DNA from: Octopus vulgaris
Lineage: Eukaryota
DNA: 64,000 bases
Assembly (NCBI GenBank): GCA_951406725.2
Contig: OX597833.1
Coordinates: 61,690,001 to 61,754,000, forward strand
Reading direction: 5' to 3'
Positions 3,665-63,878 of this stretch are shown here, in pieces. The notes under the pieces are model-generated. The model searched no databases. It was given only the letters and a program-made list of their open reading frames with translations, and had not been told where the DNA came from. The translations under genes and the position numbers were made by a program. Position 1 is the first letter of the stretch, and each line of letters opens with the position of its first letter.

Positions 3665-5273
3665 CACACACGGACTCGGCGCAGTCCATGCAGCGATCAA
3701 TTACAAAGCAGTGTAACATAAAATGTCCCTGTAATTGAAAATCCAAAGAATCCAAATGATAAATGATTCGCTTGGATTTCTTCACACATGAAGAAAGGTG
3801 TGGAACGAGCGTAACCTTACGGAAGTCATGTGGTTAAAAATAATTCTATATTCCGTTTTTACACATCCTTGGACTATATGTTCTCTCTCTATATATATAA
3901 TTAACTTAATTAACGTTATATTTAAACTAATAATTAAAATAACGTCGCTATTGTTATTGTTTTTTTTTTTTCTCACACAGTTTACATTGATAGAAATGTA
4001 ATACAAAAAGTTGTTCAACCGTGTGTCAGAATTGATCCCGCACACTTACAATGGAAAATGTTGCTATTATTCTTCCATTTTTTTGTTTTTATATATCATC
4101 CAGACTTATATATCTATCATTACATTATGCAAGACGGCGAGCTGGCAGAAACGTTAGCACGTCGGGCGAAATGCTTTGTGGTATTTCGTCCGCCGCTGTG
4201 TTCTGAGTTCAAATTCAGCCGAGGTCGAGTTTGCCTTTCATCCTTTTAGGGTCGATTAAATAAGTACCAGTTACGCACTGGAGTCGATATAATCGACTTA
4301 ATCAATCCGTTCGTCTGTCCTTGTTTGTCCTCTCTGTGTTTAGCCCCTTGTGGGTAGTAAAGAAATAGGTATTTCGCCCGTCGTTCTGAGTTCAAATTTC
4401 GCCAAGGTCGACTTTGCCTTTCATCCTTTCGGGGTCGATAAATTAAGTACCAGTTACGCACTAGGATCGATATAATCGACTTAATCAATCCGTTTGTCTG
4501 TCCTTGTTTGTCCCCTCTATGTTTAGCCCCTTGTGGGTAGTAAAGAAATATATATATAGCATTACATTATACAATGTGTTCTTCTCACTTCTAAAAGACG
4601 TTGGATAGTGGTTCTGAATCAGGGTCCACATAAAATTTTGTTTTAAATTGTTTATATTCCTACAATACACAAAATATATTAACAATTTTTTTTGGACAAT
4701 TCCTAATAATATTTAATTATAAAAATAAGGATTTTAAAAGATGAGGGTTCCCCCAAGTACAATAGGAATCAAATGGGTAAGTTTGAAGGAAATTTAGCTG
4801 TTTTTTTCTCGCAGATCGAGCGACCATATACAGATTCACAGTTTCATTTTTGGGGATATTTGAAGTGACAGAGCAATCGTACAAGTTTATTTTCTTTAAC
4901 TTTCCATCATTTTTAAGTCATGGATTTTTTTTCATAAAACTTTTAAAATCTCCAATTACATGGTAATTAGTTATGAGCTATTACTATAGCTAAGCGAGTT
5001 TAATTAGCGAATCAACTTGATTGAATACACCCTCAAACGCTGACGGGGGCACTTATTCGTTCCGAAGATCACGAAGAAGAGAGGCAAGCCCTCATCAGCT
5101 GCTATGTAAACGATAGACGTCTGGCGCACTTGGAGCTTGGTCACATAGAGTCGTGACTGACTGTCCTCACACTCTTGCACCACAAAACCACAAAAATTTA
5201 TTATTCTCATCAAGTATTCTAGTTATAATTAGAAGAAAGGTAAATAATTAATAATCAGGGATATTAAATAGTG

Positions 5274-32149: not shown

Positions 32150-35100
32150 ACTTAGATTTCAGGCAGTATAGGCCCAGGCCATGTCTAACTTAATAGCACC
32201 ACTGATTAATTAAGTTCTTAATTATTTTCAACATTTATTGAAGCAAAGGCAGTATATTTCAACAGAAATATGGTAAAAGAATATGAGAGAAATATGGTAA
32301 AAAAAGAAAGCGGTTAAATCTAGAATGGTTTTTCCATGGTCTAAACTCTTTAGTTTTTCCCCTTGATATTCTCTAACCAAACTACTTGCTGAGAAAGACA
32401 AGTGCAACACTGAAATATAAATAAATGTTATTGATGACCAAACTTGTATAATTAATGTAATTATTTTCTGCTTGTTTGTTTGTTTTAATTCTGTGTACAT
32501 TTGTTATATTGTGATGTTCGATTTCAGTTTGATCCTCAATTGGTTTTAATATCCTCTGGTTATGATGCAGCCCTTGGATGTCCTGAGGTATGCTGTTGAG
32601 TCATCTGCTCATCATTAAAACCTTCTCTCTGTATATATCTTACTCAGCTAAACATCAGTAATAACTATTATTAAAGAAGATTAATGTATTACATACATGC
32701 ATACATACATATTTACATACATACATACATTTATATATCTAGAGTGTGCAGTGAATAAACTGTCGTCTAAATTATGCAAAAATGAAAATAACACATCTCA
32801 TTTTAACAGATATATTTATCAAAATTACATAAAAATATCTTGAAATACTAAAGAATAAATTTATTCAATAAAATCGCCATTGGCTTCAACCACGACCTCC
32901 AGATGACTTCAGAATCTCCTGCAACTCTTCTGAATGGTCTCCTTGTTTAAGTTGGTGAATGTTGCCATAATCCTTGCCTTCAGTTCATCTTTGGTGTTAC
33001 AAGGAGTTTTATTGGTCTCTCACTCAACTATGCCCCACACATAATAATCAAGGGGGATGCAGTGTGGGGAGTTAGGTAGCTAGATGTTAGGGGTGAGGTG
33101 GTTGTAGAAATTGTCTGATATCCATGACTTGGTTCTCCTGCTTGTGTGGCATGGTGCAGAGTCCTGTTGCCAGACTTAGGGTCTTCCAGCAGCCGCCCTC
33201 TTAACTCAGTACAGCATTACCTCCTCCAGTCACTTGATGTAAGCCTCCGTGTTGTGTCTGAGGCCATGTGGGAAGATGAATGTAGGAATAATGTTGCCAT
33301 CACTAGTGATCACTCCAAACACCATGATGTGGACTGGCTGTATGGTTTTTATCACTCTCAGTATATGTTTTAGGGACATGGTCAGCCAACAGTTGTTCTG
33401 TGTTCACTATCCATTTGTATTGGAGTTTCTGGTGTGAATGTCATGCAGTACAGCATGTCGTTTCCAAATCTCTGGCAGACTGAATTGCGCCATGGTGCTG
33501 TTTTTCTCACAGAAGGTTCTCAACTGATCCTACTATACTGTGTAGTTGACAAAATCAAAAAACAAACAATGCACATGCATGAAATTAAAAATATAATATG
33601 GCGACAATTTACCCATCACATATATTTATGTATACCTTCCATTGATAAAAGCCAGCTTGCTTGAAACATTGATGTCTGGGAGTCCTAATAGATGGCAACA
33701 CCAAACAAATAGGGTGTTTTCATACCTTTTTACCAGGAGAAAAATATTTTCTCTGCGGTAACTGCAATGAATTTGCCTTTTAGCAGTTGAAATATATCAC
33801 AAACATTTTAACTAATCTAAACTTTGCTTACATCTAAACACAGCTTTGTGCTAATATTTCGTTATTTTTTATGACTGGGTGATCCACCAGTGCAAATCAG
33901 TCAATGCTGTTGACTGTATTTTACATAAAGCCATTGCTTTATAAGATTTGTTCAAAGTTGCTTCTCATAGGTACCCTCCATTGATAAATACAAACTGGCT
34001 TGACACATCAATGTCTGGGAGTCCTAATATATGGTAACACTGAACAAATAAGGTGTTTTCACACCTTTTTACCATAAGAGAAATATTTTTCTTTATGGTA
34101 ACTGCAGTGAATTTACTTTTTAGCAGTTGAAATATGCCACAAACATATTTTAACTAACCTAAACTTTGCTTATACCTAAACACTGCTTGGCACTAATATT
34201 TGTATATCTATATTAAATTCAAATTATGATGAACGTAAACTAACAAACAAAGCGTTGAGATGTCTTAGAAAGTTAAAGAAGTAATTTTAAATTCTTAAAT
34301 GCAGGATGATGCTAATAATATAGCGTGAACAGGATAAGCTTCCCCTATTTTGCAGAAAAAAGTGTTGCTGGCCGGCTATGAGACATGAACTCACACCTCC
34401 GTGATTACGCATCGCGGTGCTCTAAACCATTAATCTAAACCACACCACAAATTCTTCCACAAGTTTAAGATATATAGAAATCTCAATGAACATAAACAAA
34501 CAAATGAAGTTTGCTTTAGAAGCGTTGAGATGTCTTAGAAAGTTAAAGAAGTGATTTTAAATTCTCAAACGCAGGATAATGCTAATAATATAGCCTGAAC
34601 AGGTTAAGCTACCCCTATTTTGCAGAAAAAGTGTTGGTGGCCGGCTATGAGACATGAACTCACACTTCTGTGATTACGCGTCGTAGTGCTCTGAACCATT
34701 AATCTAAACCACACCACAAATTCTTCTGCAAATTTTAAGATATATAGAAATCTCGCTTTATGAGACACTATCATACGTTAAATTCAAATTACGACGAACG
34801 TAATCAAACAAACAAAGTTTGCTTTAGAAGCGTTGAGATGTCTTAGAAAGTTAAAGAAGTGATTTTAAATTCTTAAACGGAGGATAATGCTAATAATGCT
34901 ATTAGCCTGAACGGGATAAGCTACCCCTATTTTGCAGAAAAAAGTGTTGGCAGCCGGCTTATTCAGTTATCTATGTAGCTTGGTGGGATGGTGGACTTGG
35001 TAGGTAGCGCAGTGGACTGAATGCCTTGTCTTGTAGCATTTTCCATTTGTTGTGTTTTGTGATCAAGTCTTTGTAACTAACAGTCAGTAATATTAACTAT

Positions 35101-38100
35101 CACCATTTTGTCACTTATTACCACCACCACCATTATTGTCATCACCACCACACAACTACCACAACCTCTAGTTCCAATACCACCACCACAACCTCTAGTT
35201 GTAACACCACCCCTACCATCATCACTAACACCACCACCACCACCATCACAACAACCTCCAATCTCCTCACCATCCTCAATAACACCACCACTACCACAAC
35301 CTCTAGTTTCAAAACCACCAGCACCGCTGTCATTGCTAACACTACCACCAAAACCTCTAGTTGTAACACCACCCCTACCGTCATCACTAACACCACCACC
35401 ACCACCACCATCACAACCTCCAATCCCCTCCACCCATCATTGCTAACACCACCACCACCACCACAACCTCTAGTTGTAACACCACCCCTACCGGCATCAC
35501 TAACACCACCACCACCATCACAACAACCTCCAATACCTCCCACCATCCTCACTAACACCACCACTACCACAACCTCTAGTTCCAACACCACCACCCCTAC
35601 CGTCATCACTAACACCACCACCACCATCACAACAACCTCCAGTTCCCCCCACCCATCATTGCTAACATCACAGCCTCTAGTTCCAGCAGCACCAGCACCA
35701 CCACTGTGAACATCACCACTACCACCACCAACCTTGACTATCTTCTACTACCACTACAGTTACCATACTTTGCCTCTCGTCATTCTAGGCTTGTTAAAAT
35801 AACGTACCTGTCATATACTGGGGCAGTCCAGTGTACCAATCACTCCTACCTCTCCTTAAATTAGCCTGCTTTGCGTCTAAATCAGAAACAATTATCATTT
35901 AAGGGCAACGAACTGGCAGAATTGTTAGCGTTGGGAAAAAATGCAATGTCTCCTCCGACTCATTATGTTGTGAGTTCAAATTCCGCAGGGTAATTTCTGC
36001 CTTTCATCCACCGAGGTCGACGTTACCTTTTTATCCTTTCGAGGTCGATAAATTAAGTACCAGTGAAATACTGGGGGTCGATGTAATCAACTAGTCCCCC
36101 CCCCCAAAAAAAAAAAATTTCGGGCTTTGTGCCTATATTAGAAAGGATTATTATTATTATTATTATTGGGTGAGAGAGCAGTACATGCCATCAAAGCGAC
36201 TTTGGCGTTTGGGTTGTACAAATATACAAAGCCCTATATATTTATCAAGACTGCTCATTTGATAAGGGTACACCAAGCACATACATCACAACCATATGTG
36301 TGTGACATGGTACGTGACATGAAGTTAAACAACACATGGCATCATTATTATTATTAGCCTCGCCTGGCCCCTGTGCCAGTGGCACGTAAAAAGCACCATC
36401 CGACGGTGGCCTTTTGCCAGCCTCGCCTGGCACCTGTGCTGGTGGCACGTAAAAAGCACCCACTACACTCTCGGAGTGGTTGGCGTTAGGAAGGGCATCC
36501 AGCTGTAGAAACACTGCCAGATAAGACTGGAGCCTGGTGCAGCCTCCTGGCTTCCCAGAACCCGGTCGAACCCTCCAAACCATGCTAGCATGGAAAACGG
36601 GCGTTAAACGATGATGATGATCATCATCATTTTCGTTATTATTATTATTATTATTATTAATATTATTATTATTGAGTGAGAGAGCAGTGCATGCCATCAA
36701 AGTGACACTGGGGTAAAATATACGAAGCCCAATATACCCATCATGACTACCCGTCTGATAAAGGTACACCAGGCACATGCATCACAACCATATGTGTGCG
36801 ACATGGTGATCTCATATCAAGATAAACAGCACATGACCTTGCAGGTGGGGCCCAGTTAGAATTTTCTTCAGGTTGAGTAGCCCATCCCGCTCAAAAGGTC
36901 CCTGAATAAGGGTTGTTTAAGGATGTTGAAAGAACCACCCATGTTTCCAGAGGTGAATTATTCAAACCCCAAAGAACCCCTCTCAACACATGTCTATGAT
37001 GCTCCCCCACTACTTCTGCTCGTGATCAGAGATGCACATATCGTCAGCCACTAAGGGACATGCTCAACTGGTTAAAGTCAAACAACTGAGAAGCAAATCT
37101 GTGGTATTGAGCAGAATATTTGCTGTAGCCCATCTTTTATACCAAGACAAAACATTATTATTATTATTACTATTATTATTATTATTATTATTGCGGTGGC
37201 ATGGCAGAAATATTAAGGACTATTTTTACCATTTAAGCATTTCTCAGGATCCATTTGAGGTAACTTGCAGCACAACCCAGAGATTTTGAGGTCAACACAA
37301 TCAAAAACTTCCCAATATATTCACCAATATTCAAATTTTCAGTTTCTTTCTGTTCCTTTTTTGGCTTCTAGTTCAATCCTCAGCTTGTCCTCATCTCTGC
37401 GGGATTTGATTCAGCATTTGGTGACATCAAGGTACTGTGTGCTAATGTCCTCTTCCTTTTACTCAATCCCTTCCTCACTGTTCTGACAAGTAAGGTGAAG
37501 TCCCCTTTTTTTGCAGAGGAAATACTATGGATGATGATGATGATGACAACGATGATGGAAATGGTGGTGGTGGTGGTGGTGGTACTAATGGCAGTAAAGG
37601 TGATGGTGATGTTAGTGATGACGATTGTGATAGTTGTGGTGGTGGTGATGGTAGCAATGATGTTGATATGATGATGGTGATGGTGATGACGACGATGGAA
37701 ATGGTGGTGGTGGTGGTGGTGATGGTAGTATTAATGGCAGTAAGGGTGATGGTGATGATTGCGATGGTTGTGGTGGTGGTGATGGTGGTCTTAGTGATGA
37801 TGATGATGATAGTGGTGGCAGTGGTGGTGGTGGTGTTGATGATGATGATGGTAATGGCGATGATGATAGTGATGATGATAATGGTGTTGTTAATAAATTA
37901 ATGTCTAAAACACTACAATCTTTCGGTATTGGTCTCATGTCTCTCAATCATCTTTGGAATTGGTTTTTACCGATATACAGAGAGTATGCTAATATGCTTG
38001 TGTTCTTCAGACATTCACTTCACAATCGCATAACATTTCATCTCACTACAAGACACGTTTGCTAACTGTCTTTTTTCTATAGCCTTCTGCTTACCAAAAT

Positions 38101-41100
38101 CTTGTCAGTGGAATTTAGTGGAGCAGAACCTATGTGGAAGTGTGTGAGTGTGTGTAACCCTTTTGGTATCAACCCGCCTGAAACCACCTCTGGCTCTGTA
38201 GGACAAATGTTTTGTTTCCAAAAGTTCTGAATAAAATCTTCCACCAAACCTTAGTCACAATTTATGTTCCTAACACTAGCTGAATGATAACTAAGTTATT
38301 TTACTAAATTCTTTCTTATATTTAAAGTAATTGAAAGAAACACAAAGCATCTCAAAATAAATACAATAATGAAAGGGTTAAAATATATAATAGAGAAACA
38401 ATTCTTAACCCTTTTGATACCAGCCTGGCTGAAACCACCTCTGGCTCTGTAAGACAAATGTCTTGTTTCCAAAAGTTATGAATTAAAATCTTCCACCAAA
38501 CCTTAGTCACAAATATATGTTCCTAACACTAGCTTAATGATAACTAAGTTATTTTACTAAATTTTTCGTTATATCTAAAATTAATTGAAAGAAACACAGA
38601 GCATCTCAACAGAAATATAGTAACAAAAGGGTTAATTAAAACTGATAAATATGGGGTCAGTTTAGGAAATGTCTTTACATAGTAATATTTCAATTACTTA
38701 TAACAAGAGAGAAATATGTTGTATTAAATCTCTGAGCAAGAGAAAAACAATAACAGTACAGAATTGTAAAATATATTTGCCAACGAAATGTGGCGGTCCT
38801 TTAGAGGACAGTGCTACTGTTGTTTCTAGCACCAGGACGACATCCGTACTGTTACTGTTTATCTCTCGCTCAGAGATTCAGTATAATGAATCTCTCTCTT
38901 TTACAAGTTCAGCAACAGTGTGTCGCTAGGAAAAGGTTGTAGTATTATGTGTGTGGAATGAGTTCTTCATCACTAGCCAGAGATTAACACACACTGAAGA
39001 TGGGTAACCACTCAGAAACCTGGGTCTGTGTGTATCACGTAAGGCTAGAGATGGGAGTGATGATCTCCCTTGCAAATGTTAATTGGATATAGACTGTGTG
39101 TTGTTGGCCAGCTAGAAGAGATGTCTTCCTGGGGCTAAAAACAACAGTAGCACCGTCCTCTATAAGACTGCCACATTTAGTTGGCAAATATATTTTATTT
39201 ATAACAATTTGTCCAAAACATTTTATACAAATTAGAAGGGAAATGTATATTTAAAAATTTTTAATTCTAAGAAAAAATATTTCATATAATGCTAATGATT
39301 TAAATAAAATCTTATTTTCAAGCAGTGTATGAGCTGATCTATATACATATATATTTTAATGGATAAGCTAGTATAGATGTTCTAATATATATATTTTTAT
39401 TGATAGTTAGTATATATGTTCTTTAAATAATACTGTTAATATATTGTGCTTTAACCCTTTCATTACCACCCGGCCGAAACCGCCTCTGGCTCTGTAGTAC
39501 AAATGTCTTGTTTTCTTAAGTTTTGAATTAAAATTTTCCACCAAACTTTAGTCACAATTTACATCACTAACACTAGCTTAATGATAACTAAGTTATTTTT
39601 CTAAATTCTTTGTTATATCTAAAATAATTGAAAGAAACAAAGCATCTTAAAATAAATATGGTAATGAAAGGGTTAAAAGTAATTCTGTTAATATATTGTG
39701 CTTTAAACATGTATTTCTTTTTCTAGGGTCAAATGAGTGTGTCCCCTATGGCTTATGCTCATTTTACTCATATGCTGTCTACCTTAGCCAATGGGAAAAT
39801 TTGTACTATTCTCGAGGTAAGTAACAGTGTTTCATAGCCTTCCATCTCTTTCTCTCTCCCCACCTCTCTCACTCTCTCTGTGCTCCCTCTCTAAATACCA
39901 GTAATTATTCATTGTTTCAGGGTGGTTACTGTCTGAAATCTCTGGCCGAAGGTGTGGCCTATTCCATAAAGAGTCTTTTAGGTGACCCTTGCCCTGATTT
40001 GGGACCACTGGCGCCTCCTTCAGACAGGTAAACTTTACTTCGAATATTCCTACTCTTCAAATCAGGTCATCATCGCCACCGCCATCGTCATCATCATCAT
40101 CATCATCATCATTGTCAGACCTATGATCAAATGTATTTCAGCAGCAGCTATCAAATCCTTTATTCTGGTATAGTGTATCTAGGACTACGTCATTTAATGT
40201 AGCCTTCCTTGGACTACATTATCTAATCTTGATCTGGCAAAGTTTCTACAGCTGGATGCCCTTCCTAACGCCAACCACTCCGTGAGTGTAGTGGGTGCTT
40301 TTACGTGCCACTTACACAGGAGCCAGTCAGCTGGTACTGGCAACGCCCACGCTCGAATGTTTTTTCCTGTGCTACCAGCACAAATGCCAGTAAGGCAACG
40401 CTGGTAACGATCACGCTATCTTAAACAAAAAGGGGCACACTTATTGATGTAGTCCTTGATACACTATGTATATCATGACTGGAACACCTAAGGAGCCTTC
40501 AGATAACATAACCCTAGATACACAGTGTCTGGATGAATGTGAGGATGGTCACAGTTGGAGCACTTTGATCATAGATCTCCCAAATCACGACCGACCTGGG
40601 GCTAAAAACCACTGCAACATCAATAACTGCCGACTCAACACATCATGCTAGAAATAGCAGCTGCAGTCTGTCTCAAACCACAGATGTTACCCTTACATTT
40701 TTCTGTTACAGTGTAGCTGAGAGTATCTTGAATGTCATCAAAGTACACCGGAACTATTGGTCCCGACTGCGGCACCAGAGTTATGGGCAACACCCTGATG
40801 AGTGTGCCTACCCTGATCTTTGGACTATGCCACCCAAGTAAGATTTAATTTCCATTTTATAATTTTTTTTTTTGATGTGGTAAGGGACATTTGTCCTGTT
40901 TTAGTCTGGTCTCTAATTTTTTTCTGTCATCCACTCTTCTCTTCTCACCTCTCTCCCTCGACCCCTCCCTCTCTATCAACACCTCCTCTCTCTCTCTCAA
41001 CTCTCCCTTTCTCCCACCTCCCTCTCTCTCTCTCTCAACCTTCCTCTCCCACCTTCCTCTGTCTCAACCCTCTCTCTCTCTCCCATCTTCCTCTGTCTCT

Positions 41101-63200: not shown

Positions 63201-63382
63201 ATATATATATATATATATATATAAATAATGGAGAAATTGTACAAAATGTATAAACAGATGATGATTTAAGCACTGGCACAGTTTCGATTACCTGTTGTTA
63301 TCCATAGATTTACTGCTGGGACTTCGCAGTGGTGGTTGGGGTAACAGTATTAATAAAATAGTAGATGGAATGTGTGAAAGAC

Positions 63383-63441
63383 TTTATTGGGTACAACTCA
63401 TGTTTCGACCCATTCTGGGTCTCTTCAGGTGCATCAATAAA
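63383..63441 (-). ncRNA. Mirror copy of hammerhead motif (antisense arm of palindrome)
   Basis: Reverse complement tttattgatgcacCTGAAGAgacccagaatgggtcGAAACatgaGTTgtacccaataaa; one stem I mismatch. Confidence 0.6.
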
Positions 63442-63477
63442 AAGTCATACTAGAGATTTCTTGAGTCAGCTTACGTA

Positions 63478-63536
63478 TTTATTGATGTACCTGAAGAGAC
63501 CCAGAATGGGTCGAAACATGTGTTGTACCCAATAAA
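63478..63536 (+). ncRNA. Minimal type I hammerhead ribozyme motif
   Basis: tttattg-at-gtac-CTGAAGA-gaccc(agaat)gggtc-GAAAC-atgt-GTT-gtac-c-caataaa: bulged stem I, perfect stem II, palindromic stem III loop (acatgt), GUU site. Confidence 0.75.
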
Positions 63537-63878
63537 GTCTATTACACATTCCATCTACTATTTTATTAATACAGTTACCCCAATCACTTCTGCGAAGTCC
63601 CAGCAGTAAATCTACGGATAACAACAGGGAATCGAAACTGTACTGGAGTTGATCATGAGCTGAATAGCCTAACCACTAAGCCACATTCCTTTACCCCCCC
63701 ACACACACACACATACACACACACACACCCCACACACATATGTATGCATATATATACATACACAGTCATATACATACATATATATATATATTTACATGTG
63801 TGTGTGTGTGTTTGAGTGTGTGTGTATGTACATATATATATATATATATGTTTTTATATATATATGTGTGTGTGTGTG

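Follow-up and report, generated by a model that had tools for sequence, protein, structure and literature searches.

An intronic hammerhead ribozyme in an octopus HDAC6-like gene as a likely inert insertion of a dispersed 359-nt retrozyme, probably copied by Penelope-like elements

Two groups of mobile elements, Penelope-like elements (PLEs) and the non-LTR retrozymes, constitute the closest described counterparts of the locus reported here. PLE copies form partial tandems and can have an adjacent inverted, 5'-truncated copy that gives inverted repeats around the unit; a tail of 30–40 bp is often present at one end, and a (TA)n bias has been tied to the CX2-5CxxC linker (PMC8557442, used here, like all papers cited, from parts of its text). 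Purified PLE protein cleaves and extends both strands, two adjacent start sites define the tail, and hammerhead cleavage is not needed in vitro (PMC11167929). In PLE hammerheads, A9 is followed by an extra base, the G10.1-C11.1 pair is conserved and helix III is palindromic; a single minimal one had no detectable cleavage, and dimers cleaved weakly (PMC4209133). Non-LTR retrozymes are 170–400 nt long, and mussel repeats of 350–390 bp are expressed as circles (PMC7229834). They have been argued to derive from PLEs, and in Xenopus, about 43% of copies are intronic and one of nine dimers cleaved (bioRxiv 10.64898/2026.07.22.740005). The consulted part of PMC544870 gives no rate for a changed 10.1-11.1 pair. 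For hammerheads together with Penelope elements in octopus, our literature search, which took in main texts, found only PMC8557442, whose octopus passage, in the part consulted, is on Naiads.

The window (the whole 64-kb stretch of Octopus vulgaris DNA that was analysed) holds a type I hammerhead in an intron of an octopus-type HDAC6-like gene (Table 1). An earlier note, made from the sequence, had described a full hammerhead core with a 7-bp stem I and a 5-bp stem II at 38987-39033, and both reading and a motif scan bear this out: the motif fits the core CUGANGA / GAAA / NUH with helices I-III, a motif with these helix lengths occurred in none of 300 shuffled windows, and a looser scan gave 2 motifs in the window vs. 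0.03 in shuffles. The length of stem II stands, but its closing pair is U-A and not G10.1-C11.1; this U arose by C-to-T change at a CpG, where the family majority sequence has C opposite A. Within the hammerhead, the window copy differs from that majority at 38981, 39001, 39012, and 39021. Helix III is predicted to have 2 bp as a monomer and 8 bp as a dimer. A search of 37000-41000 with Rfam models, in line with the Infernal check that had been proposed, gave 3 matches at E<=5, none of them a hammerhead, and a 71-mer around the hammerhead folded no better than shuffles (z -0.46). Judged from its sequence, the hammerhead is a real ribozyme motif, with a predicted cut after C39026.

Table 1. Coordinates of features at the insertion and in the host gene, numbered from the first letter of the window
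Feature	Position	Strand	Remark
Left target-site duplication, 13 nt	38694..38706	+	1 mismatch to right copy
PLE-type tail on inverted arm	38705..38766	-	4-nt monomer joint + monomer positions 1-58
Inverted 5'-truncated copy of monomer 3' end	38767..38844	-	positions 278-355; left arm of the earlier note
Forward monomer, without tail at end	38843..39197	+	positions 1-355 of 359
Right target-site duplication	39195..39207	+	
Type I hammerhead, bulged and extended helix I	38980..39038	+	core 38994-39026
Helix I	38987-38993 / 39027-39033	+	7 bp
CUGAAGA	38994-39000	+	hammerhead core
Helix II	39001-39005 / 39010-39014	+	5 bp, one G-U
GAAA	39015-39018	+	hammerhead core
GUC	39024-39026	+	predicted cut after C39026
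Alternative 60-nt exon of mutually exclusive pair	32528-32587	+	AG/GT ends
HDAC6-like exon upstream of insertion	37372-37431	+	Lys-gatekeeper version of mutually exclusive pair
HDAC6-like exon downstream of insertion	39727-39816	+	

The hammerhead had been placed in a ~430-bp element bounded by ~78-bp inverted repeats. The repeats are real (38767-38844 / 39120-39197, 78 nt, 90% identity, the two arms differing at 8 of 78 positions), but the extent was too short: the left arm reaches about 38705, and its tail had been missed. The true insertion is about 38705-39197, enclosed by the 13-nt duplication with its one mismatch, and the left arm as a whole (38705-38844, minus strand) reads as monomer positions 278-355, the joint and positions 1-58. 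The 78-bp repeat is thus the overlap of two truncated arms rather than a terminal inverted repeat, and the inverted ends are likely a by-product of insertion. In the frame list, which covers the locus as a whole, the three longest stop-free frames all lie outside the element. Near-identical element pieces are present in read sets under two organism labels from one study, and so the insertion may be common to both labels, with no listed contig spanning it; no empty-site joint was seen among the 15 joints listed from these read sets (68 more exist). On either side of the insertion, the intron also has copies of a very high-copy repeat of ~230 bp, three in all (38153-38381, 38404-38635, and 39449-39676).

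Four DNA searches of the octopus genome, each keeping the best 40 of 2491, 1264, 1505, and 3776 first-look candidates and taking 30 loci, gave 84 distinct loci, which are the top matches of queries favouring long, tail- or hammerhead-bearing copies and not a random sample. All 84 resolve to pieces of one 359-nt monomer arranged head-to-tail, with a median identity of 88% to the majority sequence, and the monomer joint (355 back to 1) is also present in two read sets. The monomer is non-coding, carries one type I hammerhead and has a GC content of 0.448, compared with a retrozyme range of about 170–400 nt and low GC. This dispersed, ORF-less unit upholds the earlier suggestion of a non-autonomous, ribozyme-carrying mobile unit of the PLE/retrozyme kind. 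Inverted ends in place of direct ones had been taken to characterise the unit, and this is not supported: the unit is a direct head-to-tail monomer, and 48 of the 84 loci have no two-armed inverted layout. A genome-wide check had been proposed of whether inverted repeat and hammerhead travel together; of 82 loci bearing the arm, which is just the monomer 3' end, 6 have no hammerhead.

Outer 3' ends (n=120) fall at two sites, 51 at the monomer end and 46 at a tail end ~60 nt past the joint, with 23 elsewhere. In the 36 inverted loci, the two ends combine as end+tail (21), tail+other (8), end+other (4), other+other (2), and end+end (1), and never as tail+tail; the shorter arm is 32–421 nt, and arm length and inner junction vary between loci. 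(TA)4 adjoins 49 of 122 ends in the first 61 loci, vs. 792 of 12200 control spots (6.5%). A duplication score >=10 was reached in 18 of 61 loci vs. 17.7% of mismatched controls, a comparison to which microsatellites add noise. The longest arm in these top-match loci is 692 nt, less than two monomers, and two hammerhead positions stand in tandem in 10 of 84 loci (pairs not scored for intactness), the window copy being solo. Inverted arm, partial tandem, and one-end tail, features of PLE insertions, are all present in the family, and terminal inverted repeats of fixed form are not common to it. The 5' ends of copies are scattered, with a mild excess at 189-205 (11 of 120, p 0.03, in an interval picked post hoc) to which we give no weight. 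Because 88 of 126 aligned pieces run through the predicted cut site and none of 120 5' ends lies at it, with no pile-up there, the copied RNA would have been uncut or circular.

In the majority sequence of the family, helix I is bulged and lengthened by 5 bp, helix II is 4 bp long, preceded by C and followed by A, and the sequence for helix III is a perfect 8-nt palindrome. Across 62 copies, the position next to the core is C.A in 39, U-A in 15, G.A in 3, and other in 5; a G10.1-C11.1 pair next to G12 is absent from all 62, and a G-C pair stands one step further out. The core is intact in 37 of the 62 and all criteria set are satisfied in 13; core positions vary slightly less than others (25/518 vs. 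1258/17672, p about 0.04). In alignment A1, whose 35 rows were picked from 45 core-matching hits, the core is invariant by construction, and we do not count this as evidence. A sister family B is 75% identical over 355 nt and matches round the same circle; in it, N7 and loop II change freely and the C and A flanking helix II are kept. At the closing pair of helix I, A-U is replaced by G-C, and within the palindrome one C-G pair becomes U-A; these two swapped pairs make up 24 of 28 double-change cells (9.7 in shuffles), which represent two events between two families and not 24. Given these compensatory changes, one in helix I and one in the palindrome of helix III, selection has likely acted on the ribozyme as a dimer in the source elements. 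Cleavage as dimers via stem III had been noted as frequent in minimal type I hammerheads, and the palindrome and its compensatory change favour a helix III of that type. The sister family (L127-L156, with 4357 first-look candidates) has the same inversion, tail, and (TA)n pattern, and a more distant third relative lies at 2658-2959 of L164.

The window copy is 9% diverged, differing from the majority at 32 of 355 positions, and has changed at 10 of 30 CpG positions vs. 22 of 325 others. CpG changes account for both the U that lengthens helix II to 5 bp and the U that spoils the palindrome, and the change at 38981 breaks a distal pair of helix I. In equilibrium predictions, the active fold is at -6.0 and the minimum at -15.4 kcal/mol, a gap of 9.4 (5.6 for the majority sequence), the dimer helix is at -9.8 vs. 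-14.9 kcal/mol in the majority sequence, and helix I and helix II have probabilities in context of 0.10–0.16 and <=0.01. No second family copy or hammerhead was found within the 64-kb window, and none in the mapped gene. Given this divergence, CpG decay, missing partner, and predicted misfold, cleavage of the host pre-mRNA is unlikely, and cleavage by the window copy is predicted to be weak; the copy is likely inert now. The intactness of its core needs no selection at this site, because 37 of the 62 copies surveyed keep an intact core.

PLEs with a GIY-YIG domain are abundant in this genome, with frames of 775 and 781 codons and a Cx4CxxC linker. They would be Neptune-type, a label read from the linker, to which that of Nematis is similar (PMC8557442, in part). 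In one PLE family, the hammerhead lying 3' of the ORF leaves one base unpaired both before and after helix II (22 matches in 20 of 30 loci), and in L118 these bases are C and A. The best 150 of 6136 and best 150 of 16800 endonuclease candidates were scored, and no sequence common to the monomer and the PLE endonuclease loci examined was found; the PLE partner is accordingly putative. Model R1 gave no convincing match in 15 PLE loci, and when both family monomers were compared by BLAST with 30 more, only L164 matched, in an apparently separate insertion. An autonomous PLE has an RT plus GIY-YIG ORF; the family is a closed 359-nt monomer, and of the ORFs beside the first 30 monomer loci, considered by length and at most 244 codons long, none was identified as PLE. 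L124, where a match of 74% lies 1.3 kb downstream from a PLE ORF, was rejected as the autonomous partner because that PLE copy terminates in (TA)n at 4983 and no match is present in its relatives L123, L094, and L118; the match is an insertion of the sister family in its own right. In the 3' region of the 775-codon family (L164-L186), 17 of 22 hammerhead matches have C for U at core position 4, and this most abundant, near-identical subfamily may therefore spread with an impaired ribozyme. The 781-codon family (L095-L120) has a hammerhead-like motif with a U3-A8 core variant, as in schistosome PLEs (PMC4209133, in part). The window itself has a second inverted pair at 63278-63641, with 164-nt arms that are 94% identical and separated by 36 nt; both arms carry a hammerhead-like core, the two cores lie on opposite strands, and the cleavage triplet is apparently altered. 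Two weak hammerhead matches at 63.4–63.5 kb belong, like this pair, to another PLE-type family with a canonical helix II and a different palindrome.

We consider it highly probable that the locus is an old insertion of a dispersed 359-nt non-LTR retrozyme, likely copied by the RT and GIY-YIG endonuclease of a Neptune-type PLE, and now likely inert. A partial-tandem source copy would be transcribed, and a PLE protein would nick both strands of an AT-rich target; each nick would prime reverse transcription of the RNA, with one start at the monomer end and the other ~60 nt further, and two 5'-truncated cDNAs would join back to back, which gives an inverted arm with a tail and a forward arm without one. 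The end+tail asymmetry and inverted arms match the described PLE signature of inversion plus tail. In source transcripts, two hammerheads 359 nt apart may pair via the 8-nt palindrome and cut out monomers; the window copy would cleave little because its hammerhead is single, its palindrome is weakened, and other folds compete.

The PLE endonuclease loci examined had no autonomous partner with shared sequence next to them, so the monomer could instead be the pLTR of an unsampled autonomous PLE, of which the window holds a 5'-truncated, inverted fragment. Such pLTR fragments dominate PLE insertions, close hammerhead pairs on opposite strands have been described (PMC4209133, in part), and the endonuclease candidates scored were the best of far larger sets. 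We regard this as improbable though worth keeping in mind, given that long copies always read 359 before position 1 and 1 after 359, up to 692 nt, that the sister family matches round the same circle, and that the first 30 loci have no ORF identified as PLE. MITEs and foldback DNA elements are short and non-coding, with inverted ends. A unit of that kind, with 78-bp terminal inverted repeats and a captured hammerhead, might be read from the 36 of 84 inverted loci and from L002, which is similar, with an inverted arm from 274 and a tail; this is hardly credible, as arms range from 32 to 421 nt, inner junctions are scattered, the remaining 48 loci are not two-armed, and the left arm runs on as a tail, so that the locus survey has already largely refuted it.

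On the other alternative, the copy would function within the intron as a ribozyme or hairpin, cutting or folding the HDAC6-like pre-mRNA and tuning output or exon choice. The sense orientation, the intact core, the near-identical pieces under two organism labels, and the slightly lower variation of the core would fit, and the arms are predicted to make a long hairpin. We find it very unlikely all the same: the core is intact in 37 of 62 copies and all criteria hold in 13, the 64-kb window has no cis partner hammerhead, full-length isoforms across the intron are annotated in two octopus species, and in the parts consulted, single minimal PLE hammerheads are reported without detectable cleavage (PMC4209133) and one of nine Xenopus dimers cleaved (bioRxiv 10.64898/2026.07.22.740005). 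An old, PLE-copied retrozyme insertion remains our preferred reading.

That the hammerhead is in sense orientation, in the intron after the zinc-ligand exon, is confirmed by the flanking exons, both on the plus strand; the upstream one we take, with the help of an alignment, to carry the zinc-ligand Asp. It had been numbered exon 10, which holds if residues 1-3 occupy a further exon, since eight exons map upstream. The exons of the exclusive pair are both 60 nt with AG/GT ends and encode alternative HDAC6-like segments, one with a final Glu and the other with a final Lys. In two octopus species, the annotated isoforms X1/X2 are the same except at residues 254-272. The last residue of the swapped segment aligns with Lys of HDAC6 domain 1 and Leu of domain 2, and this is the substrate gatekeeper position, at which HDAC10 has Glu, for polyamines, and CD1 of HDAC6 has Lys (PMC5454378, in part). 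Both versions occur in tandem in 6 of 121 homologues, including four bivalves and a dragonfly, and ant isoforms have either version. Because the two exon versions swap the gatekeeper, one protostome gene may switch between HDAC10-like and CD1-like specificity by splicing; no paper on such a swap was found by title or abstract start, and the exon pair may matter more than the retrozyme insertion. A contig from a presumed RNA run has exon 39725-39817 with other sequence on both sides, resembling a spliced product. Octopus HDAC6-like proteins are ~700 aa long and have a single Zn-ligand motif, with zf-UBP not among their listed domains, and most invertebrate HDAC6 matches are 1100-aa; the shorter layout recalls HDAC10. 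It is a long shot that the insertion owes its retention to a bias in which exclusive exon joins exon 11, exerted by its 78-bp hairpin or by slow trans-paired cleavage with family transcripts; if so, it would tune the output of Glu-gatekeeper (HDAC10-like polyamine deacetylase) vs. Lys-gatekeeper (HDAC6 CD1-like) protein.

The window locus itself is ordinary, one decayed solo copy among many, and both its element class and its insertion geometry are known. Of wider interest is a protein-free retrozyme with the full PLE insertion signature and a single tail per inverted insertion (tail+tail in 0 of 36). The family lends genomic support to PLE-driven mobility of retrozymes and to two-strand, two-site priming, hitherto shown in vitro for an autonomous element. 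In addition, the helix II variant with an unpaired base on both sides, common to the family and to a resident Neptune-type family, is directly assayable.

Compared with known systems, the locus resembles MITEs and foldback DNA elements in being short and non-coding with inverted ends, but the family differs from them in that arm length is not fixed, ends are asymmetric, and copies are 5'-truncated and tandem. The family resembles metazoan non-LTR retrozymes, as these are described in the texts consulted, in its non-coding 359-nt monomer of 44.8% GC with one type I hammerhead per unit, its head-to-tail joints, its many dispersed solo copies, and the co-occurrence of PLEs. Unlike described retrozymes, it shows no array of at least two full units among the top-match loci (longest 692 nt), and it has frequent tailed inversions and C opposite A at the base of helix II. 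From Neptune-type PLEs, it differs in having a monomer without an RT-endonuclease ORF, no sequence link to the PLE families sampled, a monomer tail of ~60 nt rather than the 30–40 described, and an extra base also before G12. Nevertheless, with EN+ Neptune-type PLEs, as far as the sources consulted describe them, it shares the palindromic helix III, the extra base after A9, partial tandems, an inverted 5'-truncated arm, a tail at one end, a (TA)n bias, and variable duplications.
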